Source: Candidatus Latescibacterota bacterium (GTDB taxonomy: Bacteria > Latescibacterota > UBA2968 > GCA-2709665). Taken from it: a DNA stretch of 64,000 nucleotides. The stretch covers positions 2,208,001 through 2,272,000 of the forward strand of contig OZ241917.1 of NCBI GenBank assembly GCA_965203805.1. Reading direction: 5' to 3'. The position numbers were made by a program, and so were the translations under genes. The stretch's first letter is position 1; the number at the start of each line of letters is the position of its first letter. The notes below the pieces were generated by a model. The model ran no database searches, was not told the origin of the DNA, and worked only from the letters and a program-made list of their open reading frames with translations. Shown here piece by piece: positions 7,159 to 45,202 of this stretch.

Positions 7159-7638
7159 TTCCCTCTACGAACACGTTTGTGCGTTGTTTTTGTACACGTA
7201 ATTTACAGCGCCCGTCTGAGCACGTTAACGTCTCCTTACCGATGACCCCGGCATATCGACAAATTACACATTTACTGAAATAAGTCAATAACGTCGATAT
7301 TTTAACAACGAGTCCCCTCAGCAATCGGGGGTCTATAGGAGCCGAGGCAGCGCAAAACCACATTGCCCCTCAAGGGGGGAGTGATAAAACCCTTAGACGG
7401 ATTCGCGCGTTCACTTGATTCCATTCGGTTGCTGCTGAACGTCGCAAAGGCCCAGCAGAGAAGGAGTGCCGAATACTTGGTATTGTAAGACAAAAACAGA
7501 TTATATTTGTATTACCGACTTTCGTTACGACCTTCAAGTGCATCTCCTTGACCTGCATTTACGCGCACTTCGATGAGCCGTTTCGACAAGGTTAACCCAA
7601 GCAGCGACCGCGTTCCTCCTGAATCAGCTGAATCGTCT

Positions 7639-8910: not shown

Positions 8911-8936
8911 AAAAACCGGCCCATCGGGCCGGTTTC
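8911..8936. terminator. Bidirectional terminator
   Basis: AAACCGGCCC-atc-GGGCCGGTTT between convergent genes. Confidence 0.7.
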
Positions 8937-8977
8937 GCCGCCATCCAAAGCGTATAGCCGTTGGCACCGTCGATGAC

Positions 8978-9967
8978 TCACGTCGACAGAATCCGTTCGA
9001 TCTCCCCTTTGAGCGACACCTCCAATCTGGGACCGTACTGCGCCACCACGCGCATCGACGCGTAGTTCGCGAGTTTCGCCGACTGCGCCGCGTCGAGTCC
9101 ATGGGTAATCCCATACAGATAGGCCCCGGCGAACATATCCCCCGCGCCGTTGGTATCCACCGCATCAACGTTGAATCCCGGGGAGTGAAACCGTTCGCCT
9201 CCGTCCCGCACCACCGCGCCGTTGGCCTCACAGGTGACGGCGTATGCGCCAACCATCGTTTCGAGCGCGGCGCAAGCGCCATTCGTATCGCCGGTTTCCG
9301 TAAACGCCTTCGCTTCGTCTACGTTGCAAAAAAGCATGTCCACCCCGCCGGACACCAGCGTTCGCATCCGGTCACCGAACGCGGCCACGATGGATGGGTC
9401 GCTCAGCGTGAGCGATACCCGCGTCTTCCGCGCGCGCGCCTCGGACTGGGCGGCCAGCGCCGCGTCGAACCCTTCGTCCGAGGCGACAAGATAACCTTCG
9501 ATATACAGGTATTCGCTGCTTCCGATCACCTCGGGTTCGAGCTGTTCCGGACCAAACGTACCGGTGATGCCCAGGTACGTATTCATCGTGCGATCGGCGT
9601 CGTCCGTGATCATCACGAGGCACTTGCCCGTAATCCCGTCACCCTGAAACCGGTTGGAAGCCACCCCCGCCGCCTCCAGGTCCCCGAGGTAAAAATCTCC
9701 GTACGAATCCTTCGCCACCTTGCACGCATAATATGCCCTGCCGCCGAAGTCCGCCACGGCGATCATGGAATTCGCAGCCGAACCACCCGACGAGCGCTTC
9801 AGAACGTCATCACCCAGGCGTTCGAGGAGTTCGTGATGCCGGTCTTCTTCGATCAGCGTCATCACGCCTTTCTCGATTCCTGCCGACGCGAGAAAGCCGG
9901 GCGTGACCCGGTACTGAATATCCACCAGTGCGTTGCCCATTCCGTACACGCTAAACGCTCTGCCCAT
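8978..9967 (-). CDS. Adenosine kinase-like PfkB-family kinase
   Basis: GNALVD, GGSAAN, DRTMNTYLG, DTNGAGDMFAG motifs. Confidence 0.9.
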   Translation of the reverse strand: MGRAFSVYGMGNALVDIQYRVTPGFLASAGIEKGVMTLIEEDRHHELLERLGDDVLKRSSGGSAANSMIAVADFGGRAYYACKVAKDSYGDFYLGDLEAAGVASNRFQGDGITGKCLVMITDDADRTMNTYLGITGTFGPEQLEPEVIGSSEYLYIEGYLVASDEGFDAALAAQSEARARKTRVSLTLSDPSIVAAFGDRMRTLVSGGVDMLFCNVDEAKAFTETGDTNGACAALETMVGAYAVTCEANGAVVRDGGERFHSPGFNVDAVDTNGAGDMFAGAYLYGITHGLDAAQSAKLANYASMRVVAQYGPRLEVSLKGEIERILST

Positions 9968-30562: not shown

Positions 30563-30591
30563 TTGACATATAAGTCATCGAAGTGTATTAT
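30563..30591 (+). promoter_or_regulatory. sigma70-type promoter of the heme-uptake operon
   Basis: TTGACA-17 bp-TATTAT, spacer similar to the 29896 promoter. Confidence 0.75.
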
Positions 30592-30970
30592 CTTATTTTC
30601 ATAAATTTTATATATATAACAGTTGACAATCCTACGAAATGACCGGCGGATATGCTTAATGTTTGCCCGGTATGCAAATAATCGGGCGTGTTCATCCGGG
30701 ACTTTCGCCATTTCAGCAGTCTTGCGCTCCCCTCGCGTGGTTCTGTACGGATCACCGAACGTCTAACCTTGATTCGTCATTATTCGGGGACGTTAATTCG
30801 AAAATGTGCCTGTGAATAAAGGCGATTTAACTGCTGATTTCCATGATCCTTCAGGTCACTGGACGTGAACGGAAAAAATGTCCTTCCAGACGACCTTTTC
30901 GGCCCGTTTCGGAAGGTTTCGTCGCAGCGACCCGTGGCTGTTTTTGTCGAATTAAGGCTAAGGAGAGCCG

Positions 30971-31864
30971 ATGTTCGGACGGACAATATTGATTCTATTG
31001 GGGCATATCCTCGCGGTAGCCCCGTTTGCTCGGGCCGGTTTCGAAGACGGCGACGGCGGTCGCTCCACCGCCTCGCGCGTCGTATCCGTCGGCGGATCGC
31101 TGACTGAAATCGTCTATGCCCTGGGCGCGACTGACGCGCTCGTGGGAACGGACACGTCCAGCGGGTATCCGGAAGCGGCTACCCGGCTGCCCCAGGTGGG
31201 GTATCAACGGCGGCTCTCTGCCGAGGGAGTGCTGTCGCTCAACCCGACGCTGGTGCTGGCCACCGCCGACGCCGGCCCGCCCGCCGCGATGGAGCAGATC
31301 CGCTCAGCCGGAGTGCCGGTAATGACGGTGCCGAGCGCGCGAACGCCCGAAGGAATCAAGCAGAAGATCCGCACGGTGGCCCGGGCGCTCGGGCGCGAGG
31401 AAAAGGGAGAGGAATTGGCGCGGATCCTGGACGCGGACCTGCTCCTGGCGAAAGCCTACCTGGCCGGAGCCAATATGAAACCGAGGGTTCTATTCATCTA
31501 TGCCCGCGGCCAGGGCACGATGATGGTGTCGGGATCCGGCACGTCGGCGCACACGATGATTCAACTGTCGGGTGCGGAGAATGCGGTTTCCGGATATGAC
31601 AATTACAAACCGCTTACCGCCGAAGCTGTGGTGGCCGCCGGGCCCGACGTGATTCTCATGCTTTCGTCGGGGCTCGAAAGCCTTGGCGGCGTGGACGGCC
31701 TCCTGAAAGCGCCCGGGGTCGCGCTTACCCCGGCCGGTAAGAATCGCCGGATCGTGGCGATGGACGGACTCTATCTGCTAGGATTCGGCCCGCGAACGGG
31801 AAAAGCCGTACTGGAACTGGCTCGAGAATTCCATTCGGAGACGTGTGTTTCCAGGGATCAATAA
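30971..31864 (+). CDS. hmuT: Heme ABC transporter substrate-binding protein
   Basis: GGSLTEIVYALG, VG.D.SS.YP, VGYQRRLSAEGVLSLNP (heme Tyr), YKPLTAEA, LLGFGPR. Confidence 0.92.
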   Translation: MFGRTILILLGHILAVAPFARAGFEDGDGGRSTASRVVSVGGSLTEIVYALGATDALVGTDTSSGYPEAATRLPQVGYQRRLSAEGVLSLNPTLVLATADAGPPAAMEQIRSAGVPVMTVPSARTPEGIKQKIRTVARALGREEKGEELARILDADLLLAKAYLAGANMKPRVLFIYARGQGTMMVSGSGTSAHTMIQLSGAENAVSGYDNYKPLTAEAVVAAGPDVILMLSSGLESLGGVDGLLKAPGVALTPAGKNRRIVAMDGLYLLGFGPRTGKAVLELAREFHSETCVSRDQ

Positions 31865-31865
31865 C

Positions 31866-32996
31866 GTGGACGTCACCGACGAGCTTTCGTCCGGTCCTAT
31901 ACCGAAGCCGTCGGAAGCGGGCATCGTTGCAGACCGCCCGGACCGGCGCAGGAAACGCGCGGTTGCGGTACTTGCAGGGTTGGGCGTTCTGCTGGCCGCA
32001 ATGACCGTAGCCTCTGTCGGCGTGGGAGCGGTTGCCGTATCTCCAGGGCAGATTCTGGCCATGTTCGGCGAACGGATCGGTGTGTGGCTGCCCTGGACGT
32101 TCCAGCCTCAACAGGAGGCGGTGGTAACGGCAATACGTCTCCCGCGCGTGCTGCTGAACGTGCTGGTCGGCGCCGGACTTTCGGTTGCCGGGGCGGCGAT
32201 GCAGGGACTCTTCCGCAATCCCCTCGCGGATCCGGGGCTGGTGGGCGTGTCCAGCGGCGCTGCTCTGGCGGCCGTCTCCGTGATCGTGCTGGGAGCCACG
32301 TTACTGGAGGGTCTCACTTCGGCGCTCGGGATGTTTACGCTTCCCCTCGCGGCATTCGTCGGCAGCGTTGTGACCACCGTGATCGTGTACAGGCTTTCCA
32401 GCGCACAGGGACGTACCGTCGTGGCCACCATGCTGCTGGCCGGCATTGCCGTCAATGCGCTGACGGGTTCCGTAACCGGCCTGCTGACTTTCGCGGCGAC
32501 GGACGAGCAGCTTCGAAATATCACCTTCTGGAGCCTGGGCAACATGGGTGCGGCCACCTGGACGTCCGTCGCCTCGGTGGCCCCTTTCATCCTGATAGCT
32601 GTCAGCCTTCTTGTCCGGTACGCCAGGCCGTTGAACGCCTTCCTGCTGGGAGAGGCCGAAGCGGGACATCTCGGCGTGCCGGTTCAACGTATGAAACGCG
32701 AGATTGTGACCCTGACCGCGCTGGCGGTGGGCGCGTCGGTTGCTGTTACCGGCATCATCGGGTTCGTGGGGCTGGTGGTGCCCCACCTGCTTCGCCTCAC
32801 CGTGGGCCCGGACCACCGCTACCTGATGCCCGGCGCTGCGCTGCTCGGCGCCTCCCTCCTGATGGGGGCCGACCTTGCTGCCCGCACCGTCGTATTGCCG
32901 GCCGAACTGCCTATCGGCATTGTGACAGCCATCGTCGGAGCGCCTTTTTTTCTCTATCTGCTGCTGCGAAGCAAGCAGACGATGAAACTGCTATGA
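31866..32996 (+). CDS. hmuU: Heme ABC transporter permease (FecCD family)
   Basis: IRLPR, QGLFRNPLADPG, EAEAGHLG, IGFVGLVVPH, ELPIG. Confidence 0.93.
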   Translation: MDVTDELSSGPIPKPSEAGIVADRPDRRRKRAVAVLAGLGVLLAAMTVASVGVGAVAVSPGQILAMFGERIGVWLPWTFQPQQEAVVTAIRLPRVLLNVLVGAGLSVAGAAMQGLFRNPLADPGLVGVSSGAALAAVSVIVLGATLLEGLTSALGMFTLPLAAFVGSVVTTVIVYRLSSAQGRTVVATMLLAGIAVNALTGSVTGLLTFAATDEQLRNITFWSLGNMGAATWTSVASVAPFILIAVSLLVRYARPLNAFLLGEAEAGHLGVPVQRMKREIVTLTALAVGASVAVTGIIGFVGLVVPHLLRLTVGPDHRYLMPGAALLGASLLMGADLAARTVVLPAELPIGIVTAIVGAPFFLYLLLRSKQTMKLL

Positions 32997-33856
32997 TCGA
33001 AGCGGAAGCGGTCTCAGTACATATCGGCCGAAAGGCCCTGCTGAATCGCGTCAACATCCAGGTCCGGCCGGGTGAAATCGTTGCCGTCGTGGGTCCCAAC
33101 GGATCGGGGAAGACCACGCTTTTCAGGGTGTTGTGCGGCGACCTCTCGCCGTCCACGGGCGCGGTGTGGCTCGAAGGCTGGTGCCTCGACGATTGGGCCT
33201 CGACGGAACAGGCTCGCAAACGCGGGGTGCTCCCGCAGTCCGCCACCCTGGATTTCCCTTTTACGGTACTCGAGGTCGCGGTTATGGGTCGGATGCCGCA
33301 CCTGGAGGGCTCGGAGGGATCCACAGACTACGCAATTGCGCGCGCCAGTCTGGGTCTGGCGGGGGTTGGCGATCTGGAAGACAGGATTTACCCGACGCTG
33401 TCGGGAGGCGAAAAGCAGCGCGTGCAGTTCGCGCGGGTTCTCACACAGATCGGCGAACAGCCGTCTGATGGCCGGCGATACCTTCTGCTCGATGAACCCA
33501 CATCCAATCTGGATCTCGCACACCAGCACCGGATCCTCTCCACGGCGCGCAACTTCGCCCTTGAGTCAACCGGCGTATTGGCCGTGCTTCACGATCTGAA
33601 TCTGGCCGCGCAATACGCGGACCGCGTCCTCGTATTGAAAGAAGGGGAAGAACTCACTTCCGGTGAGCCGTCGGAGGTTTTCACGGAGGGCGTCATCGAA
33701 CGGGCTTTCGACGTGCGTGTGCGGGTGATTCCCCATCCCACGATGGATTGCCCGCTCATTGTACCGCTGCCCGAGACTTCCGGGAAACCGGGACCGGCCC
33801 CCATTGCCGGCGGCCTGATGACAGGGATCGGGCCCGGAAGAGCGTACGGCCACTGA
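32993..33856 (+). CDS. hmuV: Heme ABC transporter ATP-binding protein
   Basis: ATGA overlap; GPNGSGKT, LSGGEKQRVQFARVL, LLLDEPT, HDLNLA. Confidence 0.93.
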   Translation: MIEAEAVSVHIGRKALLNRVNIQVRPGEIVAVVGPNGSGKTTLFRVLCGDLSPSTGAVWLEGWCLDDWASTEQARKRGVLPQSATLDFPFTVLEVAVMGRMPHLEGSEGSTDYAIARASLGLAGVGDLEDRIYPTLSGGEKQRVQFARVLTQIGEQPSDGRRYLLLDEPTSNLDLAHQHRILSTARNFALESTGVLAVLHDLNLAAQYADRVLVLKEGEELTSGEPSEVFTEGVIERAFDVRVRVIPHPTMDCPLIVPLPETSGKPGPAPIAGGLMTGIGPGRAYGH

Positions 33857-33908
33857 CGCGACCCGCCGAACACCGTTTCGAAAGTCCTGAGACGGATCCG
33901 GCGATAGG

Positions 33909-36335
33909 ATGGAAAAACCAATGTCAAGCGCGAATTCCACGGGTAATTGTCGTCAGTCCAGGCCATCGGCAGCGGTCGACGGACGGGGAGGGTATCTCGC
34001 GAACCACCTTTTCCTGAAGGGATTGAAGGGGTCCGGATGGTTCGTGTTCCTGATCTGCTTCTGTAATGTCGGCGTGGCGAACGACGCTTCGGGTCGTATC
34101 GAGGGCGTGGTGCAGACCGCGGGCGGGATGCCGCTGGCAGATGTCAACGTCTCCGTTTCAGATAAGCCATTGGGAGCGGTGAGTTCCGCCACAGGGCGCT
34201 TTTCTCTGACCGGCGTCTCCGGGGGTGAACATACGGTCGTCGCGAGTCTGGTTGGTTACAGGCGTACTCGTCTGCAGGTCAATGTTGCGGCGAACGCCGT
34301 CTCCAGGGTCCGCATTGTATTGACGCCGGAGACGACCGCGCTCCCCGCGATAGTCGTCACAGGTACCAGGTCGGCGCAGAGTATAGAAGACACGCCGATC
34401 CAGACGCAGGTCATCACCAAACATGAGATTAACGGCACCGGCGTGGTGGACCTGGGAAGTCTCCTGGCGGAACAGACCGGGATTGCCGTGATCTCGGACC
34501 ACGGCACCGGCGTTCAGATGCAGGGGTTCGATCCCGATTACACGCTCATTCTGGTCGACGGCGAACCCGTTATCGGGCGCACGGCGGGGACACTCGACCT
34601 GGACCGGTTCCTGGTGAGTAATCTCGAGCAAGTCGAGATTGTCAAGGGTTCCACGTCCTCGCTTTACGGCAGCGAGGCCCTGGCAGGCGTGATCAACCTG
34701 ATTACCCGCCTGCCGGAAAAACCGTTCTCCGCGTCCATTCGACCACGCTACGGCACCTTCGGCGCTCTGAATTTCACCGGCGAACTGGAGTCCCGACAAA
34801 AGGAATTCGGGATATCGCTATTCGTGGACCGAAGCCGCAGCAGCGGCTACGATCACACGCCGGAAACGGTGTCGCCGACCGCTCCCGAATACGTCGCCTA
34901 CACGGCGAGTCCCAAAGTGGTCTACGAACCGAGCGACCGGGTTACGCTTTCGCTGTCGGCACGGGTATTCCAGGAAAGCCAGCAAAGTCCCGAAGAGATC
35001 AGGTCGCCCGGCGGAAACGTGCTCATCGAGAGGGACGCACGACTGACAGACTGGAATATCAACCCTAGAATCACCTTTCGATGGACACCCGGTCTTCGGA
35101 TAAGCGGCAAGCTCTACACCGCCAATTACCATACCCGAAGCGAGCGGACGCGCGCCGATAGCGGCGAGCCGTACGACATGGCGGCTTTCGACCAGAACTA
35201 CCGCAAAGCCGAAGTGCAGGCCCATTCACTGGTCGGAAGAACCAGCATTGTGACGCTTGGCGCGGGGACGGTGTGGGAGTCAGTAGAGGCGGACCGCATT
35301 ACCGGGGGGCGCCAATCCTCGCGCAGCGCATTCGCTTTTCTCCAGGAAGAGTGGTTGCCCGCGACATGGCTCGACCTGGTCGTCAGCGCGCGCGTGGACG
35401 CGCACAGCGACTACGCGGCAAGGGTTAGCCCGAAAGCCGCGCTCCTTATCAAGTCCCTGCCGTGGCTGCATCTTCGAGGATCCGTAGGCAGCGGCTTCAA
35501 AGCGCCCACGTTTCAGCAGCTGTACCTGGATTTCACCAATCCTTCAGTCGGCTATTCCGTACTCGGCTCTACCTACGTCCGTGACGGGATGGCGCTGATG
35601 CAGGACGAAGGCCGGATTGCCGCCGTGCTTCAGGACACCGAAACGATGGAGCAGATTCGAGCCGAGAGCGCAGTTTCTTTCAACGCGGGCATTGAAGTCG
35701 CACCGGGAGGCCGTGCAACCGCGAAAATCAGCTTCTTCCACAACAACGTGCGGGACCTCATCGAGGCCTCGCCCATCGCCCGGAAGAAGAGCGGCCAGAG
35801 CGTGTTTACGTATTTTAATCTCAACCGTGTCTTCACCCGCGGTGTGGAAAGCGAAGTCAAACTGCGCATTTCCGAAAAGGCCGGGTTGTCGGCGGGTTAC
35901 CAGTACCTGCAGACGGCAGACAGGGACGTGCTGGACAGACTCAGTGACGGCCAGGTTGTGACGGTGGATCCGGAAACCAACAAACTTCGCCGTGTCGAAA
36001 CCCCGGAATACGGAGGACTCTTCAATCGCTCGACCCACACTGCCACGCTGCGCCTTTTCTATCGGAACGAGGTGACCGGCCTCGGCGGCAGCCTGCGCGG
36101 CGTATATCGGGGTCGATACGGCTACCAGGATCGCAACCTGACCAACATCCTCGACGCGCCCGAAGAGTACGCGCCGGGCTACGGTATCTGGCACATATCG
36201 CTTTCCCAGCAGATAAAGGACTTTGCCGCAACGATTCGACTGGGTGTCCGGAACGTGTTCGACGAAAAACGGTTGGACTATGTTCCCTCTCTGCCCGGCC
36301 GCATACTCTATGTGGATCTGACCAGAGACTTCTGA
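33909..36335 (+). CDS. TonB-dependent receptor with N-terminal carboxypeptidase-regulatory-like domain
   Basis: IVVTGTR, ILVDG, VEIVKG..SSLYGSEALAGVINLIT plug motif, GFKAP, GV.NVFD, C-terminal F. Confidence 0.93.
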   Translation: MEKPMSSANSTGNCRQSRPSAAVDGRGGYLANHLFLKGLKGSGWFVFLICFCNVGVANDASGRIEGVVQTAGGMPLADVNVSVSDKPLGAVSSATGRFSLTGVSGGEHTVVASLVGYRRTRLQVNVAANAVSRVRIVLTPETTALPAIVVTGTRSAQSIEDTPIQTQVITKHEINGTGVVDLGSLLAEQTGIAVISDHGTGVQMQGFDPDYTLILVDGEPVIGRTAGTLDLDRFLVSNLEQVEIVKGSTSSLYGSEALAGVINLITRLPEKPFSASIRPRYGTFGALNFTGELESRQKEFGISLFVDRSRSSGYDHTPETVSPTAPEYVAYTASPKVVYEPSDRVTLSLSARVFQESQQSPEEIRSPGGNVLIERDARLTDWNINPRITFRWTPGLRISGKLYTANYHTRSERTRADSGEPYDMAAFDQNYRKAEVQAHSLVGRTSIVTLGAGTVWESVEADRITGGRQSSRSAFAFLQEEWLPATWLDLVVSARVDAHSDYAARVSPKAALLIKSLPWLHLRGSVGSGFKAPTFQQLYLDFTNPSVGYSVLGSTYVRDGMALMQDEGRIAAVLQDTETMEQIRAESAVSFNAGIEVAPGGRATAKISFFHNNVRDLIEASPIARKKSGQSVFTYFNLNRVFTRGVESEVKLRISEKAGLSAGYQYLQTADRDVLDRLSDGQVVTVDPETNKLRRVETPEYGGLFNRSTHTATLRLFYRNEVTGLGGSLRGVYRGRYGYQDRNLTNILDAPEEYAPGYGIWHISLSQQIKDFAATIRLGVRNVFDEKRLDYVPSLPGRILYVDLTRDF

Positions 36336-36491
36336 GCAAACCCGGGCTATTTCCGAGCGGACGCCAAGGCGACCTGACACGTGATGTGTCGCGGAGATTA
36401 AGCCTTACACGCTTTCAACCGGAAATAGAGCCGCATCAACGAGCTTCCCTGAAACGCCTGCAACGTCAACCCCTTTTACAGCGGGAGGTAT

Positions 36492-37733
36492 ATGAAAGGA
36501 TCTCTTGTATTCAGCGCATTTCTCCTGTTCGCGCTGCCGGCGAACGTAATGAGCGAGGACGACGGGTCGGAACCCGTAATGAGAATTACGGGATACGGCG
36601 AACTCATCTACTCGCACTTCGATTACGGCCCCGACCAGAAGAGCAGCCCGTCGGGTTCGCCGCCGGACAGCCGCGCGACCATCGACGTCGCACGTCTGGC
36701 CCTCGAGCTGGAAACCCGCCTGCTTCACGGCGTAGAGCTGGAAGTCGAACTGGAAATCGAACACGGCGGAACCGGGGGCGCACTCGAGATCGAATACGAG
36801 GAATTCGGCGAATACGAAACCGAAGTGGAAAAGGGCGGTGAAGTCATCCTCGAGGAACTCTTCATTGAACGCGAGTTCAGCGACGCCTTCAACATCCGTC
36901 TTGGCCACTTCTACGTTGCCGTGGGTCTTACCACGGAGCAATACCATCCCACGGACTTTTTCGGAACCCGCCGCCCGGAGTCGGAAACCTCAGTGATTCC
37001 CGCAATATGGCACGAAACCGGCATCGAGGTCAACGGCCGCACCGATCGTCTGAGCTACCGGATCCAACTCGTCAACGGACTCGACGCAACGGGTTTCAGT
37101 TCGCAGAACTGGATTGTGGGGGGCCACCAGACGCGCTTTGAGGAGGTCCGAGCATCGAATATGGCGCTTGCGGGCCGGTTGGACTACCGCATCGCGGATG
37201 GCCTCAGCTTTGGCGTATCGGGCTATCGCGGCGACAGCGCCGACAACCGTCCGAAACCCGACATGAAAGGTGTGGATGCCAATGTGTCCATCTTCGACGT
37301 CCACGCCGTGCTGCGGTATAATCGCTTTCGCGCGCAGGGGATGTATCTGTACGGAAGTCTGCAGAACGCGGATATCGTGAGCGAGCGCAACCGGTCGCTG
37401 TCCAATAATCTGGATGTGTTGCGCACGCCCGTGGGCAGCGGCGCCTTTGCGTCTTATGTCGAGGCCGGCTGTGACATTCTGCCCACGCTCACGTCGCGGC
37501 GGGAAGATCAGCTCTATGTGTTCCTGCGATTCGGCAGCTACGACACGATGGCGAGTGTGCCGGAGGGTTTCTTTGACAATCCACGGTTCGAACGTCGAGT
37601 ATATACGCTCGGCCTCAACTACATCCTGGACAACGCGGTGGTCCTCAAGGGCGACTATTCGATGCGTCGACTGGGCGCATCGCGATTCAACGGTGAAAAT
37701 ACCGCCAGTTTCGCAGTAGGCTTTCAGTTTTAA
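36492..37733 (+). CDS. Outer-membrane porin-like protein (iron-uptake associated)
   Basis: Signal peptide, GYGE, ELEIEHGG, IP..WHETG, C-terminal GFQF. Confidence 0.8.
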   Translation: MKGSLVFSAFLLFALPANVMSEDDGSEPVMRITGYGELIYSHFDYGPDQKSSPSGSPPDSRATIDVARLALELETRLLHGVELEVELEIEHGGTGGALEIEYEEFGEYETEVEKGGEVILEELFIEREFSDAFNIRLGHFYVAVGLTTEQYHPTDFFGTRRPESETSVIPAIWHETGIEVNGRTDRLSYRIQLVNGLDATGFSSQNWIVGGHQTRFEEVRASNMALAGRLDYRIADGLSFGVSGYRGDSADNRPKPDMKGVDANVSIFDVHAVLRYNRFRAQGMYLYGSLQNADIVSERNRSLSNNLDVLRTPVGSGAFASYVEAGCDILPTLTSRREDQLYVFLRFGSYDTMASVPEGFFDNPRFERRVYTLGLNYILDNAVVLKGDYSMRRLGASRFNGENTASFAVGFQF

Positions 37734-37753
37734 TTCACAAGGAGGAAACACCG

Positions 37754-38830
37754 ATGAAAGTCGTTAACGTATTTTTCGGTCTCTTGCTTGCCGTTTCACT
37801 CACCGGGTGCGGCGGCGACGACGAAAACCCCGTCGCACCCGAGCCGGAACCCGATCCGCGGTTTGATTTCTCACCTATTCTTACCGACTTCGCCGACAAA
37901 ACGGTTATCCCCATCTACAAGGACCTCTCCGACAAGGCATCGGAACTCCTCGTCGCCGTAACCAATCTCAAGACCAACCCATCGCCCGCCACGCTGTCCA
38001 CCGCCCGCGCGGCCTGGGTGGCCTCGCGCCAGCCATGGGAAAGAAGCGAGGCGTTCCTGTTCGGTCCGGTTGACTTCAAGGGTTATGATCCGGCGTTGGA
38101 TTCCTGGCCCGTAAACCGCGCGGACCTGGAAGCTGTTTTGTCGGGCAGCGATCCCTTGACCAAGACATCCGTCAATAACCTCGAGAACACGCTCAAGGGA
38201 TTTCATACCATTGAATTCCTGCTCTATGACGAGGGCGGCAGCAAGACCGTAGACGACTTTACTTCGCGACAATACGATTACCTCATCGCGGCGACGGAAT
38301 TGCTCGATGAAGCTGCCACAGCGATGCATACGGACTGGAGTGCATCCGGCGGAAACTTCCGCGATCAGGTCGTCAGTGCGGGCGCGGGCAGCAACACCTA
38401 CACCACGCGGAAAGCAGCAATTCAGGAGATGATCAACGGCATGGTCGGCATTGCCGACGAAGTTGGAAACGGCAAGATTGCCGACCCCTTCAATGAACAG
38501 GACACGCGCCTGGTCGAATCGCAGTTCAGCTTTAACTCTCTTCTCGACTTCCAGAACAACATCCGCGGGATCTGGCATGTATATACCGGCGGGTACAATG
38601 TTCAGGCAGTGGGCCTGGACTATTTCGTAAGGACGAAAAACTCCTCGCTCGACACGCGCGTGCAGGATGAAATCAAGACAGCGATTGAAGAAATCGGGAA
38701 AATTTCCTTCCCGTTCCGTGACGCTCTGGCGTCCGACGCAGCACAGATCACGGCGGCCCAGCAGGCCATTGCAAAGGTGCAGGCTACCCTCGAAGGCGAC
38801 GTGCTGCGCCTGGTCAACGCGGAACCATAG
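37754..38830 (+). CDS. Imelysin (peptidase M75)-family lipoprotein
   Basis: Lipobox LTGC, W...R.PWE.SEAF.FGP, DSWP, GFHTIEFLL (GxHxxE). Confidence 0.9.
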   Translation: MKVVNVFFGLLLAVSLTGCGGDDENPVAPEPEPDPRFDFSPILTDFADKTVIPIYKDLSDKASELLVAVTNLKTNPSPATLSTARAAWVASRQPWERSEAFLFGPVDFKGYDPALDSWPVNRADLEAVLSGSDPLTKTSVNNLENTLKGFHTIEFLLYDEGGSKTVDDFTSRQYDYLIAATELLDEAATAMHTDWSASGGNFRDQVVSAGAGSNTYTTRKAAIQEMINGMVGIADEVGNGKIADPFNEQDTRLVESQFSFNSLLDFQNNIRGIWHVYTGGYNVQAVGLDYFVRTKNSSLDTRVQDEIKTAIEEIGKISFPFRDALASDAAQITAAQQAIAKVQATLEGDVLRLVNAEP

Positions 38831-38932
38831 ACCGCCGCGTCCAAACTCCGGAACGCCGATAGGGTACGTTTGCCCTATCGGCTCCGCACTCGCGTCTTTC
38901 CAACCATTTGACCGAAGCCAGGACCGTCTCTC

Positions 38933-40318
38933 GTGAAACCTGCCGGCAAAATTCGGTGTGCCATCGGCGTTTCGCTGCTCGTTTCCGCATGCGGCAGTGA
39001 AGAGACGATTTCACCCGTGCCCGATGAAACCAGACCCCTGTCCGGCGGGCAGGCGACGGTTTTCGACGCCTCCAGTCAGGCATTCGAAATGCCCATCCCG
39101 ACGCTCTCAGCCAACGAACTGGACATGTTTCTTGCGGGCGATGCCACCTTCGAACAGGTCTTCGTCACACCTCCCGCCGAAGTGAACCCTGGCGCCGGTC
39201 CCGTGTTCAGCCACACCTCGTGCGTGGGTTGTCATCTGCGGGACGGGCGGGGGCGAGGCGCATTCGGCGCAGAGCCGCCCTTCGTCGGTTCCATGCTTAT
39301 GCGCGTCAGTCTTCCCGGTCTGTCCACGCACGGCGGCCCCGCGCCTGTTCCCGGCTTTGGCGTGCAGCTCGGAGACCGCGCAAACTATGGCGTTCAGCCT
39401 GAGGCGCGTGTTCAGGTCAGCTATTTCGAAACCGCGGAAAAACTGGCCGACGGCGAAGAGGTTTACCTGAAACACCCGGTCTATCATATCGTTGAACCCT
39501 ATCGGCCGTTGCCCGAAGGGGTGCTGCTGTCGGCGCGCATGGCGCCGCCCGTATTCGGACGCGGCCTGCTGGAAGCGATATCCGAATCTGACATCCTTGC
39601 GCTCTCGGATCCCTCGGATACCGACGGAGACGGAATATCCGGGAGGCCCAATTACGTCCACAATTTCCGAACCGGTCGGACGGAACTCGGGCGCTTCGGC
39701 CTTAAAGCCAACAATCCGGACATTCTGCAGCAGGTCGCAAGCGCGTACAACGAGGACATGGGCGTTACCAGCCCGTACTTTCCCAGAGAATCCGTATGGG
39801 GTCAGCCTCAGCACGACGGCCGCGACGACGATCCGGAAATAACGCAGAAGACGTTGGACATAACGACGTTTTATATCCAGACGCTTGCCGTACCCGCACG
39901 GCGCAACTGGGATGATCCTCAGGTCATTCGCGGAGAAATCCTCTTTGAATCGACGGGTTGCGCAGGCTGCCATACCACGACGTTCCGAACGGGCAGCCAT
40001 GAAATTCCGTCACTATCCGGCCAGGTCATCCATCCCTATACTGATTTGCTGCTGCACGACATGGGCGAAGCGCTTGAAGACAATCGCCCGGACTTCGAAG
40101 CCACGGGGCGCGAGTGGAAAACGCCAGCGCTCTGGGGCCTTGGGCTCACGGAAACCGTCAACGGTTCGCCACCGGGATTCCTGCACGACGGCCGGGCGGC
40201 AACCCTGCTCGAAGCCATTATGTTCCACGGTGGTGAAGCGGAGCGTTCGCGTGAAGCCGTACGCAGATTATCGACTGAAAACAGGGAGGCGTTGCTCTCC
40301 TTCTTACGATCGCTGTAG
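38933..40318 (+). CDS. Di-heme oxidoreductase-like (DUF1111) lipoprotein
   Basis: Lipobox VSAC; CVGCH and CAGCH heme-c motifs; GRFGLKA; YTDLLLHDMG; TP.LWG; LHDGRA. Confidence 0.9.
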   Translation: MKPAGKIRCAIGVSLLVSACGSEETISPVPDETRPLSGGQATVFDASSQAFEMPIPTLSANELDMFLAGDATFEQVFVTPPAEVNPGAGPVFSHTSCVGCHLRDGRGRGAFGAEPPFVGSMLMRVSLPGLSTHGGPAPVPGFGVQLGDRANYGVQPEARVQVSYFETAEKLADGEEVYLKHPVYHIVEPYRPLPEGVLLSARMAPPVFGRGLLEAISESDILALSDPSDTDGDGISGRPNYVHNFRTGRTELGRFGLKANNPDILQQVASAYNEDMGVTSPYFPRESVWGQPQHDGRDDDPEITQKTLDITTFYIQTLAVPARRNWDDPQVIRGEILFESTGCAGCHTTTFRTGSHEIPSLSGQVIHPYTDLLLHDMGEALEDNRPDFEATGREWKTPALWGLGLTETVNGSPPGFLHDGRAATLLEAIMFHGGEAERSREAVRRLSTENREALLSFLRSL

Positions 40319-40537
40319 AACGCCCGATTGGCGCGATTAAAATCGGATGGACGAATCATCCTCGGCACCCCGCCCGACGCAATGCGCCGAGTTGATCGGA
40401 AGATTCCGATCAACTTCCACAGACCACAGTGTTCTGTCCCAGGAATACCTCACGATTCTTGTGCGGATTCATACTGCCTCAGCGGAAGAACTCTGGGAAC
40501 TCATCCCCGGGACTGAACACTCAGATGGGAGGATGTC

Positions 40538-41815
40538 ATGTATATGCGACGTGTGTTTACCGCCTGCATTATCGTCCTTGCAGCGGCGCCGCTTCTCGCG
40601 CAGATGTCTTACGATCCGGATTTCGACGGAAGCGGCGAAGTCGACTTTTCCGATTTTGTCATGTTCGCCCGGGCATTCGGGACAACGGACCCCCAATTCG
40701 ATCTCGACGGAAACGGCAGCGTCGACTTCCCGGACTTTGTCCTTTTCGCCCGGGCGTTCGGAGGCGCGGCCGAGGCCTTAACAACCCCTATAGAGTCGTT
40801 GACGGAGGTCGATGTCCGAGACCTCCCTGCCGATCCGGACCGGCAGGATCATTTCACCTTTTACAGCTTGCGGGACAGCGCCATTGTCTCACGGGCCGAT
40901 TCCAACTCCACGAAGTGGGACCTCGCGTTCAAGTCGACGACGATCCTGATCAACGGCGGCAACAGCGGACCGGGCGAGGGCGGGGCGATCGTGCTGACGG
41001 AAACGGACTACGATACGCTGTCGATGGCGCCCGACTCCGAATACGCGGTCGACCAGGAGGGGCAAGCAGCCATCGGGCCCGCGTGGTACACGTACACCGG
41101 CCCGCCCAACCATCACATCCTGATCAACCCGAACGTGGTGCTGGTCATTCGCACGGCCGACGGACGATACGCCAAGCTCCAATTCACGAGTTATTATAAA
41201 GGCGGCGAGGCGGTTCCTTCATCGCGGGAAGCGCGCGGGCGTTTTCTGAATTTCACCTACACGTACCAGCCCGATGGCTCGCGGTCGTTTGAGGGACCGT
41301 CCATGGAGATCATGACGCTCACCGAGGTCATGGCCCGCGACGTCGCGGCCGACACAGGCAACGTGGGCGCCTTCACGTTCTACAGCCTGCGGGACAGCGC
41401 CATTGTCTCACGCGCGGATTCCAATTCCACGAAATGGGACCTCGCGTTCAGATCCACGACCGTGCTGACCAACAGCGGAACGAGCGGACCGGGAGAGGGC
41501 GGGGCGATCGTGCTGACGGCGACGGACTACGATACGCTGTCGATGGCGCCGGACGTGGCGTATATGATCGATCAGGAGGGTCAACCCGCCATCTCAAGAG
41601 CGTGGTATACGTACACGGGGCCGCCCGGCCACCAGATCCTGATGAATCCGGGCGTCGTACTGGTGATTCGCACGGCGGACGGACGATATGCAAAGCTCAA
41701 GTTCACGAGTTACTATCAGGGCGGCGAGGCAGTTCCTTCCTCCCTTGAGTCAAGATCGCGCTTCTACCATTTCACGTACACGTTCCAACCGGACGGATCG
41801 CGCTCGTTTCGTTGA
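40538..41815 (+). CDS. hmuY: Secreted protein: dockerin/EF-hand-like tag plus two HmuY heme-binding domains
   Basis: Two WDLAF...I..N.G.SG.G.GG ... WYTY ... VIRTADGRYAKL.F.SYY units; N-terminal DFDGSGEVDFSDF / DLDGNGSVDFPDF. Confidence 0.85.
   Translation: MYMRRVFTACIIVLAAAPLLAQMSYDPDFDGSGEVDFSDFVMFARAFGTTDPQFDLDGNGSVDFPDFVLFARAFGGAAEALTTPIESLTEVDVRDLPADPDRQDHFTFYSLRDSAIVSRADSNSTKWDLAFKSTTILINGGNSGPGEGGAIVLTETDYDTLSMAPDSEYAVDQEGQAAIGPAWYTYTGPPNHHILINPNVVLVIRTADGRYAKLQFTSYYKGGEAVPSSREARGRFLNFTYTYQPDGSRSFEGPSMEIMTLTEVMARDVAADTGNVGAFTFYSLRDSAIVSRADSNSTKWDLAFRSTTVLTNSGTSGPGEGGAIVLTATDYDTLSMAPDVAYMIDQEGQPAISRAWYTYTGPPGHQILMNPGVVLVIRTADGRYAKLKFTSYYQGGEAVPSSLESRSRFYHFTYTFQPDGSRSFR
40854..41811 (+). 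repeat. Intragenic tandem duplication of the HmuY domain
   Basis: Near-identical DNA blocks about 40854-41290 and 41373-41811 (FTFYSLRDSAIVSRADSNSTKWDLAF twice). Confidence 0.85.
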
Positions 41816-41841
41816 GTGACAAAACACACAGGAGGCCCGGT

Positions 41842-42174
41842 ATGATTGCTGTTGCCAATCGCATCTACATAACTCCGGAATACGCCGAACAATTCGAAGA
41901 TCGTTTTCGCAACCGCGCGCATCTCGTGGACGGCATGCCCGGATTCATTTCCAACAAGGTATTGAGACCCACGAAGAGCGATCAGCCTTACGTGGTCCTG
42001 ACTTTCTGGGAATCACGGGAGGATTTCAAGAACTGGGTGAATTCCGAGGAATTTCAGAAGGGGCACGCCAGATCCGGAACGCTGCCGAAGAAAGCGTTCT
42101 CTGACGCCAGTCACCTGGAGATTCACGAGGTCTTTCTGGATACCGAACGGAAAGCCGCGGAAACGGTTTCATGA
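41842..42174 (+). CDS. IsdG/HmoA-like heme-degrading monooxygenase (ABM family)
   Basis: GGAGG RBS; VANRI, F..R, PGF, WES, W..SEEF..GH (Asn-Trp-His triad). Confidence 0.85.
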   Translation: MIAVANRIYITPEYAEQFEDRFRNRAHLVDGMPGFISNKVLRPTKSDQPYVVLTFWESREDFKNWVNSEEFQKGHARSGTLPKKAFSDASHLEIHEVFLDTERKAAETVS

Positions 42175-42297
42175 GATATACGTGCGCGAATTGAACGAAG
42201 GTCAATAAACGAACCGTCACCCAGCGCACGAAGGTGGATGATTCCTGCAAGACAGACAAGGGGCTACGAGCCATTACTCGTAACCCCTTGTTTATTA

Positions 42298-42338
42298 TGG
42301 TCGGGGAGGCGGGATTCGAACCCGCGACCCCCTGCTCC
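42298..42338 (-). repeat. Duplicated 3' half of tRNA-Pro (att-like direct repeat)
   Basis: 41 bp identical to 42545-42585, including T-arm and CCA. Confidence 0.9.
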
Positions 42339-42544: not shown

Positions 42545-42621
42545 TGGTCGGGGAGGCGGGATTCGAACCCGCGACCCCCTGCTCCCAAAGCAGGTGCTCT
42601 GCCGGACTGAGCCACTCCCCG
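42545..42621 (-). tRNA. tRNA-Pro (anticodon TGG)
   Basis: CGGGGAG/CTCCCCG acceptor stem, CCTGC-TTTGGGA-GCAGG anticodon arm, GGTTCGAATCC, CCA end. Confidence 0.97.
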
Positions 42622-42918
42622 TCCAATCGTGCCAGGTCAAAATATCTGTTCGGAATATCCACAAAACCACTGTTTCGAGCAAGAAAAAAGGTGGAATAGA
42701 TGGACAGGTTTTTGCCATCGACGACAAACCTGGAGGCACCCCCGACGGACAAAGACAGGTCAACCGCAATCCTCATCCAATCTGTAACGCAAGGTCCGCA
42801 GCGCCCCCGTTTCCAGGCTCCTTGAATTTCACTTGCCGCTTCCGGCACGTCAAGGTAATTTGACGTGCGATTAACCTCCGATTCGCATCTCATACCCTGC
42901 CCAGCGGTCTTTTCCCCA

Positions 42919-44052
42919 ATGCCCGACAAACCGGTACTCATCATCGACGGCCATCTGGACATGGCCTTCAACGCGCTCTTCTACCGGCGCGACCTCACGC
43001 AACCGGTGCACGTGCTGCGCGAACGGGAGGACGTTGTCCGCGCGGGCCTTTCGACACACAAGGATTCCCTCGAAAGACGCGCAGGACTCCAGGACAAACG
43101 CTACACCGTCACCGTTACGCTGCCTGAGATGCGCAAGGGTCACGTGGGCATCATGCTCTCGACGATCATGGCCCGCGTCCAGGCCCCGTCCATCGACTCC
43201 CACAACTCCGTCCGCGCCCAATCGGTCGCCTACGCCAGGGGCCAGAGCCACCTCCACTACTACAACGCCCTCGCACGCCGGGGCGAAATCACGTTCATCA
43301 GGAACGCCGGCGACCTGGACGTATGTGTCTCATCCTGGGAAAATCCGACGGACACCACGCCGATCGGCCTGATCCTCACCGCGGAGAGCGCCGACCCCAT
43401 CCTGGGTCCGGACCAGGTCGCAGAATGGTGGGACGCCGGCCTGCGCTCGGTCTCTCTCACCCACTTCGGCGCCAATACGTACGGCCACGGAACAGGCACC
43501 GTCGGCGGACTCTACCCCCCCGCCTACCCTCTGATGGACGCCTTCAAGGACGCGGGTATGGTGATCGACCTCACCCATGCGTCGGACCTCAGCTTCTGGC
43601 AGATCCTGGACTACTGGGAAGGCCCGGTCCACGCCAGCCACTGCAACTGCCGCGCACTGGTTCCCGGACAGCGTCACCTCAGCGACGATATGATCCGCGC
43701 CATCGTGGAACGCGGCGGCGTCATCGGCATGGTCTTTGCCGAACAGATGCTCAGCCCCGCCTGGAACTGGGACGATCCGTCGACGCACTACGCCACTGCA
43801 ACCCGGCCGATGAATGCCGTTGTCGAACACGTCGACCACGTCTGCCAGTTGACGGGCAACAGCAACCACGTGGCGATCGGCACGGACCTGGACGGAGGAT
43901 TCGGGCTGGAACTCTCACCCACGGACTACAACACGATCGTCGATCTCCAGCGTTTTCCCGACATCCTGGAAACCCATGGGTACAACGCAGAAGCCATCGA
44001 CAACATCTGTCACGGGAACCTTATCAGGTTCTTCAAGGAAGCGTGGACCTGA
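42919..44052 (+). CDS. Membrane dipeptidase (M19) family
   Basis: DGHLD, ESADP, DLTH, ASHCNCRAL, R.LSD, GTDLDGGFG. Confidence 0.9.
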   Translation: MPDKPVLIIDGHLDMAFNALFYRRDLTQPVHVLREREDVVRAGLSTHKDSLERRAGLQDKRYTVTVTLPEMRKGHVGIMLSTIMARVQAPSIDSHNSVRAQSVAYARGQSHLHYYNALARRGEITFIRNAGDLDVCVSSWENPTDTTPIGLILTAESADPILGPDQVAEWWDAGLRSVSLTHFGANTYGHGTGTVGGLYPPAYPLMDAFKDAGMVIDLTHASDLSFWQILDYWEGPVHASHCNCRALVPGQRHLSDDMIRAIVERGGVIGMVFAEQMLSPAWNWDDPSTHYATATRPMNAVVEHVDHVCQLTGNSNHVAIGTDLDGGFGLELSPTDYNTIVDLQRFPDILETHGYNAEAIDNICHGNLIRFFKEAWT

Positions 44053-44119
44053 TGCCGGTTCTCTCACCGGGCGCCCGCCTATTCCGGGCGGCGGGCTGAT
44101 TACATCAAAAAGGGTTGAA

Positions 44120-45202
44120 ATGTCGAACCGTCCGTACCTCATCGCGGACAGCCACCTGGACCTCGGGTTCAGCGCCATTCAGGTCAATCGGGACCTCACG
44201 CAGCCGGCCGCGACCGTTCGCGTCCACGACGCCGAGCCCGTGATGCGCAGCTTCGGAAGCTGCACCGTCACCTTCCCGGAACTTCGCCGGGGCAACGTGG
44301 GCATCGTCTTCGGCACCATGATGTCCCGTACCGACCCCAACGACCGCTGGACACGCACGGGCATGTACTGCCAGGACCAGTGCCACGGCGTGGGCCGGGG
44401 CCACCTGGCCTATTACCAGGCGATGGAGCGCGAAGGCGTGATTCGCTTCATCCGCAATTCGCGGGACCTGGACGAAACGGTCGCCGCGTGGGAGAACCCG
44501 GCCCCCGATACGCCCATCGGGCTGGTGGTGGCCATGGAAAGCGCCGACCCCATCCTGGACCCGTCGCAGGTTCCGGAATGGTACGATCTCGGGCTCCGAA
44601 TCGTGAGTATCTCCCACTACGGCGTCAGTTCCTACTGTCACGGAACGGGCACCGAGGGCGGCCTGCTGGAACGCGGCAAACCCCTGCTCGCCGCCCTGAA
44701 GGAAGCGGGGATCATCGTCGACCTGACCCACACGACGGACCAGGCCTTCTGGGAAATCCTGGACGTCTACGACGGTCCCGTGGCCGCATCCCATCACAAC
44801 TGCCGCGCGCTCACCCCCGGACAGCGCCAGCTCACCGACGACATGATCGGCGCCATCATCCAACGTGGCGGCGTGATTGGCGCCGCATTCGATGCCTGGA
44901 TGCTGGATCCGGAATGGAACCGTGACATCCCCTGCTGGGCGCAGAACACGAGAGCCACCCTCGAGACCGTCGCCAATCACATCGACCACGTGTGCCAACT
45001 CGCCGGCAACGCACGGCACGCCGGCATCGGAACCGACCTGGACGGCGGATTCGGGCAGGAACAGTCCCCGCGCGACCTCAACACCATCGCCGACCTTCAG
45101 AACCTGGTCGGCATCCTCCAGCGCCGTGGCTACAGGGAACCCGACGTTCGCAACATCCTCTCCGGCAACTGGGTCCGATTTCTGAAGGAAGTGTGGGAGT
45201 AG
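44120..45202 (+). CDS. Membrane dipeptidase (M19) family, tandem paralog
   Basis: DSHLD, ESADP, DLTH, ASHHNCRAL, GTDLDGGFG. Confidence 0.9.
   Translation: MSNRPYLIADSHLDLGFSAIQVNRDLTQPAATVRVHDAEPVMRSFGSCTVTFPELRRGNVGIVFGTMMSRTDPNDRWTRTGMYCQDQCHGVGRGHLAYYQAMEREGVIRFIRNSRDLDETVAAWENPAPDTPIGLVVAMESADPILDPSQVPEWYDLGLRIVSISHYGVSSYCHGTGTEGGLLERGKPLLAALKEAGIIVDLTHTTDQAFWEILDVYDGPVAASHHNCRALTPGQRQLTDDMIGAIIQRGGVIGAAFDAWMLDPEWNRDIPCWAQNTRATLETVANHIDHVCQLAGNARHAGIGTDLDGGFGQEQSPRDLNTIADLQNLVGILQRRGYREPDVRNILSGNWVRFLKEVWE

Follow-up and report, generated by a model that had tools for sequence, protein, structure and literature searches.

The window analyzed here is a stretch of 64,000 nt (positions 2,208,001-2,272,000 of contig OZ241917.1, assembly GCA_965203805.1) from the genome of a Latescibacterota bacterium, and its plus strand carries a cluster of nine genes at 30971-42174. 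We find that this cluster is a mosaic of two independently viable iron cassettes that have repeatedly been brought together. A heme cassette consists of hmuT, hmuU, hmuV, a TonB-dependent receptor, a tandem HmuY protein and an IsdG-family protein of the ABM type. Set between the receptor and HmuY genes, a triad encodes a porin, an imelysin lipoprotein and a di-heme lipoprotein of the DHOR/DUF1111 family. Our favored explanation, to which we assign a probability of about 0.6, is that one transcription unit was assembled from two self-sufficient iron-scavenging cassettes, which would work in parallel and under common regulation and not as one fused pathway. What is more novel is the conserved unit of porin, imelysin and DHOR, with its predicted porin-lipoprotein complex.

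An initial annotation of this DNA had described a hybrid nine-gene system in a single orientation. Open reading frame (ORF) listing with translation, together with identification by Pfam and NCBIfam, confirmed that nine plus-strand genes fill exactly this interval, with spacers of -20, -4, 52, 156, 20, 102, 219 and -4 nt between consecutive genes. All nine gene identities stood, including that of the porin, which the family libraries do not name and which was recognized with an AlphaFold2 (AF2) model and Foldseek, and the label hybrid fits a mosaic of two cassettes. The count of nine holds for this interval, to which a probable tenth, small gene upstream has to be added as a companion of the heme module. 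The host genome is a single 5.87-Mb contig (completeness 99.8%) whose closest public relatives are metagenome-assembled genomes of Candidatus Latescibacterota. Near-identical DNA is present in sponge, coral and marine metagenome runs, and the host belongs to an uncultured symbiont lineage associated with sponges and corals.

According to the favored explanation, and judged from family membership, the secreted tandem HmuY would capture heme, the TonB-dependent receptor would bring it into the periplasm, HmuT would hand it to the HmuUV ATP-binding cassette (ABC) importer and the cytoplasmic IsdG-family protein would open the ring and free the iron. The small protein of 131 aa encoded upstream would accompany this cassette. 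The outer-membrane triad would serve inorganic iron, with a 16-strand porin whose wall or loop is rich in glutamate, an imelysin predicted to place its GxHxxE site against the porin mouth, and a DHOR lipoprotein that would supply the redox chemistry, presumably in the direction of Fe2+. For its passage across the inner membrane, ferrous iron would depend on a transporter whose gene lies outside the cluster. FeoB suggests itself for this role, since the genome holds two FeoB copies and a PF03239 search of this 99.8% complete sequence found no FTR1/EfeU. By itself the triad does not make up a complete uptake system, as no inner-membrane permease is encoded with it in any annotated locus and the genome lacks FTR1/EfeU. 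Both cassettes would respond to iron.

Natural variants, transcription and linkage of the two cassettes

Related genomes carry four different states of the same chromosomal site. All variant loci share the upstream flank, a major facilitator superfamily (MFS) transporter gene and an aldo-keto reductase gene, and the downstream flank of tRNA-Pro and two M19 dipeptidase genes was seen wherever the stretch reached (it lay outside the range in L003 and L006). In the first state all nine genes are present, as in the window, L003 and L005, and in the same order in L018 from a sister genus. In the second state, found in L085 and L086, only the heme genes occur and the receptor stop codon lies 35 bp from the HmuY start. 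L004 and L006 represent the third state and carry the triad only. Here, the hmuT promoter, leader and first hmuT codons run directly into the porin signal peptide, and at the other end DHOR is followed by the initial ~90 nt of its spacer to HmuY and then by the terminator that in the window comes after the ABM gene. Fusion of the hmuT promoter and first codons to the porin gene shows that the triad-only form arose by deletion from the nine-gene form. The fourth state is decay, and L017 retains only the last 75 codons of the receptor gene and the last 75 of the imelysin gene. HmuY was found nowhere in these three triad-only or decayed genomes (L004, L006, L017). A comparison of heme-only and nine-gene junctions revealed no remnant, so that insertion and deletion of the triad look alike there. 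Among the 15 genomes of the window genus the four states account for 3, 2, 2 and 1 genomes, respectively, while 7 have neither module.

Each cassette, where it stands alone, still lies behind the same promoter and before the same terminator, and no other observation speaks as strongly for a promoter that serves all genes of the cluster. Within the strong sigma-70-like promoter (Table 1), TTGAC and GTATTAT do not vary among the six relatives aligned, two of which (L004 and L006) carry only the triad, and the pattern also precedes the cluster in L085 and L086, where only the heme genes occur. The same terminator hairpin closes the cluster in L004 and L006. The favored explanation therefore includes a single transcription unit that would run from this promoter to this terminator. 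An AT-rich box that follows the -10 element is a candidate operator and occurs only once in the genome. Because the box is unique and a Fur box is not recognizable, no regulon can be deduced from it; the genome encodes one protein of the Fur family. Upstream of hmuT no riboswitch was detected (Rfam, E up to 1), and RNAalifold over seven leaders returned -1.49 kcal/mol without covariation and hence no structured leader. Assembled contigs of a coral metatranscriptome library (X19) cover hmuU, receptor, porin, imelysin, DHOR and HmuY, with DNA carry-over being possible, and one of them (38607-39254) spans imelysin and DHOR. Gaps in this coverage, such as 31093-31954 and 32817-33678, do not show that the genes there are silent, and run X21 yielded hardly any matches.

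The wider distribution was determined in the best 80 of 516 confirmed loci, each centered on a porin relative and ~20 kb long, onto which the nine window proteins were mapped by tblastn. Of the 80 loci, 77 contain the complete triad, and in 74 of these 77 the genes follow the order porin-imelysin-DHOR. The incomplete loci are L027, which ends right after imelysin, L060, and L017 with its deletion. The triad is a conserved core unit, and its loci span about ten phyla (Latescibacterota, Gemmatimonadota, Calditrichota, Eisenbacteria, Kapaibacteria, Poribacteria, Ignavibacteria/Chlorobiota, Armatimonadota, Myxococcota, Thermodesulfobacteriota and Alphaproteobacteria). Together with the triad-only congeners, this bears out the claim of the initial annotation that imelysin, DUF1111 and porin form a separate module. 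Receptor and HmuY share the 20-kb locus with the triad in 20 of the 80 cases, and the hmuT/U pair does so in 18. The neighborhood search recovered the window order (hmuTUV-receptor-triad-HmuY-ABM) in L003, L005 and L018, and the combination is thus not a chance neighborhood. Other lineages combine the same parts differently. The order triad, small ORF-receptor-HmuY-ABM-hmuTUV is found in L012 and L014 and, with a 4.5-kb insert, in L087; the order triad-receptor-HmuY-HemS-hmuTUV occurs in twelve loci, with the L052 locus ending at HmuY; and the modules are divergently oriented in L076 and L078. HemS/ChuX (E 2.4e-77 to 1.5e-85) replaces ABM in lineages that lack the latter, with HemS in 13 and ABM in 7 of the 80 loci.

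For the phylum itself we tallied 168 Latescibacterota genomes, using E <= 6e-188 as threshold for a porin ortholog. The porin ortholog is present in 57 genomes, HmuY in 34 and both in 24. In each of these 24 genomes the two genes lie on one contig, 4.2-10.3 kb apart and in at least four arrangements. HmuY is missing from 33 of the 57 genomes with a porin ortholog, and 9 genomes have HmuY without the ortholog, while one fragmented genome is undecidable. Related genomes are not independent samples and these linkage counts carry no statistical claim.

These data bear on a rival explanation, in which the triad takes part in the use of heme iron and the nine genes constitute one integrated machine. 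DHOR and imelysin might for instance strip or re-oxidize heme iron outside the cytoplasm, or condition the hemophore/receptor step. Such coupling would fit the linkage in 24 of 24 genomes across at least four orders, the linkage outside the phylum in L075 (Poribacteria) as well as in the divergent L076 and L078, and the position of the window triad exactly between the receptor and its HmuY partner. However, either cassette alone can occupy the same locus in congeners, no heme gene lies within 10 kb in 57 of the 80 triad loci, more than half of the genomes with the porin ortholog manage without HmuY, and the nine genomes with HmuY alone show the converse. Moreover, the linked genomes are not independent, and a common control by iron starvation would suffice to explain the clustering. 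We therefore consider an integrated pathway quite improbable. The initial annotation had described a capture-import-degrade pathway fused to the iron-uptake module, and since each module occurs alone at the same locus, "fused" overstates the relation. It had also named unlinked modules in relatives as an outcome that would speak against it. In this respect the modules do occur alone, but they are linked without exception wherever both are present.

Several observations weigh against the parallel, co-regulated cassettes that we favor. The adjacency in 24 of 24 genomes in several orders challenges the notion that the cassettes are parallel and not coupled. No match to the classical Fur box with up to 4 mismatches was found at or near the promoter. 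Between promoter and hmuT the window carries a dispersed repeat that blastn finds 81 more times in the genome (81-94% identity among the 39 matches listed); most copies start at coordinates corresponding to 30761-30766 and many end at 30957-30962. The repeat is not present at this site in L003, L005, L018, L004 and L006, and the strain in run X15 has 123 other letters in its place. A hairpin within it (30921-30941) resembles a terminator, and the repeat could reduce or redirect transcription in this particular strain. The X19 contigs show neither strand nor transcript ends, and they may stem from carried-over DNA. Internal promoters could be accommodated in the spacers of 156, 102 and 219 bp, and a hairpin-like element before the porin gene recurs in several relatives. 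With respect to the proteins, residues 91-115 of the Glu-rich porin segment have a predicted local distance difference test (pLDDT) score below 50. The window HmuY domains are ~30-40 residues shorter than HmuY of P. gingivalis, and each has one GPP(G/N)H loop and does not keep the His134/His166 pair. The ABM protein scores 57.9 bits against the HmuQ model, which has a cut-off of 130. Finally, the organism is uncultured.

Table 1. Positions of the genes and sequence elements of the cluster and its borders within the window.
Feature	Position	Strand	Characteristics
Small conserved gene, 131 aa	30075-30470	+	read from GTG 30075; longest ORF-finder form starts at 29916
Sigma-70-like promoter	30563-30591	+	TTGACA-17-TATTAT; 11/12 consensus positions
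Conserved AT-rich box, candidate operator	30606-30621	+	just downstream of -10; ten invariant columns in 6-sequence alignment
Dispersed repeat, ~200 bp	30762-30961		between promoter and hmuT ribosome-binding site, 10 bp before hmuT start
hmuT, periplasmic substrate-binding protein	30971-31864	+	Peripla_BP_2, E 4.5e-40
hmuU, ABC permease	31845-32996	+	FecCD, E 8.2e-92, domain from residue 49; start codon uncertain
hmuV, heme-type ABC ATPase	32993-33856	+	NCBIfam NF010068, 313.5 bits vs cut-off 261
TonB-dependent outer-membrane receptor	33909-36335	+	N-terminal CarboxypepD_reg, Plug and barrel
Porin, 413 aa, first triad gene	36492-37733	+	16-strand AF2 barrel; Glu-rich segment, residues 82-128
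Imelysin lipoprotein (Cys19)	37754-38830	+	Peptidase_M75, E 1.1e-65, 222.5 bits vs 23.5
Di-heme DHOR/DUF1111 lipoprotein (Cys20)	38933-40318	+	DHOR PF06537, E 5e-105, 352.3 bits vs 22
Secreted tandem HmuY protein	40538-41815	+	HmuY, E 5.7e-32, two stretches
IsdG-family (ABM) protein, candidate heme-degrading enzyme	41812-42174	+	ABM, E 9.2e-23
Intrinsic terminator	42258-42297	+	13-bp stem, 6-nt loop, then GTTTATTA
tRNA-Pro (TGG), cluster boundary	42545-42621	-	ARAGORN and Rfam
Two adjacent paralogous M19 membrane dipeptidase genes	42865-44052, 43976-45202		directly downstream; conserved flank in congeners

Two features of the locus are recorded here in their own right. The hairpin-like element before the porin gene lies at 36400-36450 in the window and ~100 nt upstream of the gene in L007, L009, L012, L014, L016, L017 and L020. 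In the sister genus it reads GCGCCAGAGAG...CTCTGCGC, the window sequence differs, and the element is missing from L005 and L018. At the downstream border, a partial copy of the tRNA-Pro 3'-half (~42298-42338) directly follows the terminator, ~200 bp before the full gene. L006 has a similar partial copy, and L004 has the full gene in that place. An old integration or rearrangement at the tRNA may have left the partial copy as a scar.

The porin-imelysin-DHOR triad

The porin escapes the usual family assignments. No Pfam model matched it at E <= 0.01, PF07396 included, nor did any NCBIfam model or any PDB entry by sequence, and the ESM Atlas returned only generic "porin" clusters. It has at least 1294 relatives, only a minority of which bear precomputed PF07396, PF07642 or PF13609 labels. 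The AF2 model has 16 long strands (pLDDT 72.5; predicted template modeling score, pTM, 0.75). Foldseek yielded 338 matches at E <= 0.001, with a probability of 1.0 for general porins. OmpM1, BpsOmp38, Omp-Pst1, OmpF/C and OprP ranked top, with target-normalized template modeling (TM) scores of 0.57-0.72. In an alignment of 20 sequences the glutamates E86, E88, E90, E99, E103, E104, E107, E109, E111, E113, E117 and E121 are invariant. In the strands 81-90 and 117-130 glutamate alternates with L, V or I, and from this pattern we infer that the glutamates line the pore.

The other two proteins are well covered by family models (Table 1). In the imelysin, the GxHxxE motif reads GFHTIE (residues 149-154), and G149, H151 and E154 are invariant in 19 sequences. 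Its sequence matches in the PDB are 3n8u, 4ecg and 7xrx, and the genome contains only this one Peptidase_M75 match. Nearly all of the 19 orthologs have a signal sequence and, among their first 40 residues, a Cys, which in L057 lies further on. The DHOR protein has two CxxCH sites that do not vary among 21 sequences, CVGCH (residue 97) and CAGCH (residue 343), and a Cys follows the signal sequence in 20 of 20 orthologs. A PDB sequence search found no solved structure for it.

Binding between porin and imelysin is supported by complex prediction. Porin residues 22-413 and imelysin residues 35-358, each with its alignment, were modeled in three runs next to three controls. The ipSAE values were 0.77, 0.77 and 0.71, while the best of the three controls reached 0.00. 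As calibration, 116 of 157 solved complexes against 2 of 215 mismatched pairs attain the mark for this score, and these counts apply only roughly here because own alignments were used. At least 74% of the contacts are common to the runs, and partner pLDDT is at least 92. On the porin side, the modeled interface consists only of long loops (48-55, 204, 294-313, 357-365 and 396-399). On the imelysin side it comprises 107-146, a stretch that stops three residues short of the GxHxxE motif, and 252.

In classical porins the long loops normally face outward. Since it is the long loops that bind imelysin in the model, the imelysin would form a surface lid on the porin. The initial annotation had placed the triad in the periplasm, and this location is not established, because imelysin and DHOR are lipoproteins and the model puts imelysin on the long-loop, normally outer, face of the porin. 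Tentatively, and with clearly less confidence than we have in the two cassettes, we suggest that the triad might be an unrecognized, TonB-independent machine of the outer membrane with a distribution over no fewer than 500 genomes from about ten phyla. Its parts would be a plug-less, Glu-lined porin, a surface imelysin lid whose GxHxxE metal site would supply the channel, and a di-heme lipoprotein that sets the redox state of iron.

A different view of the triad would see in it no importer at all but an envelope redox or metal module with another task, such as handling manganese or copper, removing peroxide, or exporting and detoxifying iron, which is merely co-located with the heme genes. The missing inner-membrane permease and the lack of FTR1/EfeU in the genome agree with this view, as does the Pfam description of DHOR as a putative peroxidase. 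Ferrous iron is also not a certain substrate, and chlorite and metal-sensitivity phenotypes appear in the available text of Price et al. (bioRxiv 10.1101/072470). The neighborhood of the triad speaks for iron instead. Within 10 kb a ferritin gene accompanies it in 14 of the 80 loci, heme genes adjoin it in 20, and PepSY_TM and FMN_bind genes lie upstream in 6. In addition, imelysin operons are described as Fur-regulated in the accessible parts of PMC3143127, and the invariant GxHxxE corresponds to the imelysin/EfeO-type site implicated in iron uptake. On balance a non-importer role appears unlikely, and the triad is best read as the inorganic-iron cassette of the cluster.

In one sister genus (L007, L011, L012, L014, L015 and L055, at ~7300-9860) a porin paralog of 25% identity, FMN_bind and PepSY_TM precede the triad on the same strand, and in L007, L010, L011 and L053 two ferritin genes follow directly after the triad. 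This set, together with the ferritins, is another iron-related add-on to the triad. The Poribacteria locus L075 (9953-20884) contains porin-imelysin-NUDIX-DHOR, ferritin (minus strand), Rieske, an ABM homolog, PepSY_TM, a TonB receptor and HmuY.

The heme cassette

The heme cassette is complete from capture to degradation, as the initial annotation had stated, with HmuY, receptor, HmuTUV and ABM all identified. Among the importer proteins, the ATPase exceeds the cut-off of NF010068, "heme ABC transporter ATP-binding protein". The hmuV ATG overlaps the hmuU stop codon. For HmuT and HmuU all NCBIfam equivalog rows remain under their cut-offs, with BtuF- and BtuC-type rows at the top. The receptor obtained near-equal scores with the TonB-hemin (132.3 bits; cut-off 317) and TonB-B12 (130.5 bits) models. 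Receptor motifs of the FRAP/NPNL type are not discriminating, and we did not use them.

These rankings, and the HmuY domains without the bis-His pair, would also suit an importer of cobalamin or another tetrapyrrole. Such a substrate is very unlikely, however, since the ATPase passes the heme equivalog cut-off, a gene of the heme-degrading type always goes with the cassette (ABM with its Asn-Trp-His triad, or HemS/ChuX), HmuY-family domains are present, and a search up to E 1 detected no cobalamin riboswitch. Heme therefore stays the probable substrate of this cassette.

The HmuY protein is built of a type-I signal peptide, two EF-hand/dockerin-like repeats and two HmuY domains. It reaches 111.4 bits with PF14064 (gathering threshold 27), the genome scan gives 54.8 and 48.0 bits for the individual domains, and the PDB matches are 8b6a and 3h8t (HmuY). 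Pairwise alignment of the two domains reveals few differing positions, which indicates a recent duplication, and close relatives have a single HmuY domain (~250 aa). HMMER places the GPP(G/N)H loop on the His134 loop or, shifted by 4 residues, on the His166 loop. The second His has no counterpart in the window domains, and other ligand pairs, for example with Met, are possible. Because the domains are shorter and the bis-His pair is not kept, we rate heme binding by the tandem HmuY as no more than plausible. A reading of the N-terminus as dockerin was dismissed, as the EF-hand and dockerin_GC matches stay under the cut-offs and the gene is not among the Dockerin_1 matches. Elsewhere, the genome has 24 Dockerin_1 matches at E <= 0.01, among them ORFs that pass the Pfam cut-off, as well as two ORFs with cohesin, one of which encodes 1797 aa (dockerin/cohesin examples C1:3329699-3330061 and C1:3837822-3838127). 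These ORFs suggest a cohesin-dockerin display system.

The ABM gene likely starts at ATG 41842. Its product matches Thermus TT1380 most closely in the PDB (1iuj, E 6e-36), followed by B. subtilis HmoB, MhuD, IsdI and IsdG. The Asn-Trp-His triad is kept as N16, W75 and H85, with spacings of 59 and 10, and aligns with the same residues of B. subtilis HmoB. The triad N41/W100/H110 of LFO1 is spaced likewise (59 and 10), according to the accessible text of PMC5557675. Besides HmuQ, the other heme oxygenase rows of NCBIfam (IsdG, IsdI) also remain under their cut-offs. The initial annotation had regarded IsdG as largely Gram-positive, and this does not agree with 292 of 852 bacterial IsdG-like proteins being proteobacterial in the part of PMC5557675 that was available.

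The small gene upstream of the promoter probably is a tenth member, as it accompanies the heme module in three gene orders. Its homologs lie directly upstream of the TonB-dependent receptor gene in L012, L014, L055 and L087 and upstream of hmuT in L003, L005 and L086. The product has no signal peptide and no Pfam or NCBIfam match, an ESM Atlas search with the ORF returned nothing, and the family is tiny, with ten protein clusters of which several are called at 131 aa. The AF2 model (pLDDT 72) consists of two beta-beta-beta-beta-alpha repeats. A PUR repeat is the top Foldseek match (TM 0.46), too weak at E 0.07 to name a function. Judged from this model, the protein may be a nucleic-acid-binding regulator.

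Known systems and implications

The nearest known relatives of the triad are the imelysin/DUF1111 operons that have been linked to iron (PMC3143127; bioRxiv 10.1101/072470, each as far as the available text goes). P. aeruginosa PA4370-PA4373 (the icmP operon) and V. cholerae VC1264-VC1267 are described there as iron-regulated sets of imelysin, DUF1111, imelysin and DUF1513 (Xu et al., 2011, PMC3143127; Price et al., 2016, bioRxiv 10.1101/072470), and the accessible part of the latter proposes DUF1513 as the outer-membrane part. Like these operons, the window has a GxHxxE imelysin lipoprotein and a di-heme DUF1111 protein, lacks an EfeU-type permease, has a proposed outer-membrane location and iron role, and belongs to loci with ferritin-type genes often nearby. 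In contrast, it has one imelysin and not two, its operon has no DUF1513, and its triad is led by a conserved 16-strand Glu-rich porin predicted to bind imelysin. DUF1513 was absent from the nine genes and annotated neighbors, where it was looked for, a genome-wide DUF1513 search not having been made. The word "porin" does not occur in the available text of PMC3143127.

EfeUOB resembles the triad in that an imelysin-like domain (EfeO M75) cooperates, outside the cytoplasm, with a redox partner that contains heme. It differs in that the window genome has no EfeU/FTR1, the redox partner is a c-type di-heme DHOR and not EfeB, a porin is present, and the window imelysin falls far under the EfeO cut-off of NCBIfam (23.9 vs 270 bits). 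Legionella LbtU, a TonB-independent outer-membrane siderophore receptor without periplasmic domain as described in the accessible text of PMC5378763, is likewise a plug-less beta-barrel protein of the outer membrane dedicated to iron supply. This comparison is by description only, and the window porin for its part matches no Pfam or NCBIfam model.

Proteobacterial HemR/HmuR-HemS-HmuTUV loci comprise a receptor, a binding protein, a permease, an ATPase and a cytoplasmic heme-processing protein. The window cassette has those parts, and other lineages of the cassette carry HemS/ChuX, but in the window an HmuY-type hemophore is added. As in the P. gingivalis HmuY-HmuR system, of which we rely on the available text of PMC2671838, an HmuY-family gene adjoins that of a TonB-dependent receptor with an FCB-type N-terminal domain, the distance being 35 bp in the heme-only relatives. 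In P. gingivalis HmuY the axial heme ligands are His134 and His166 (PMC2671838). The window protein, in contrast, is a tandem of shorter domains that does not keep these residues, it has a type-I signal peptide and EF-hand/dockerin-like repeats in place of a lipid anchor, and the inner-membrane step is an HmuTUV ABC importer. The IsdG family (HmuQ, IsdG/I, MhuD, HmoB) is defined by the Asn-Trp-His triad and is common in Proteobacteria and Actinobacteria, as the accessible text of PMC5557675 puts it. The window ABM shares the triad, but it is nearest to the uncharacterized Thermus TT1380 and falls under the HmuQ cut-off. The initial annotation had regarded the combination as undescribed. In agreement with this, our search, which did not extend to subscription journals, found no published description of the nine-gene combination or of the porin-imelysin pairing. 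Some published accounts that name imelysin and HmuY concern, in the available text, two systems at separate loci.

The cluster shows that an uncultured symbiont lineage joins a Bacteroidota-type hemophore with an ABC importer and an IsdG-type oxygenase. The series of genomes with different gene sets behind one promoter amounts to a ready-made deletion analysis of gene interdependence. Imelysin/DUF1111 operons are iron-regulated in many Gram-negative bacteria, as far as the accessible texts report (PMC3143127; bioRxiv 10.1101/072470), and the locus described here points to a conserved acidic porin as their outer-membrane component. The predicted complex gives a concrete and testable interface between the porin and the conserved site of imelysin. 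If the lid-on-porin machine is true, it would provide the absent outer-membrane part and a mechanism for imelysin/DUF1111 systems, which have been unexplained since 2011. Repeated recruitment beside heme uptake genes would then mark the triad as a general partner in iron starvation.

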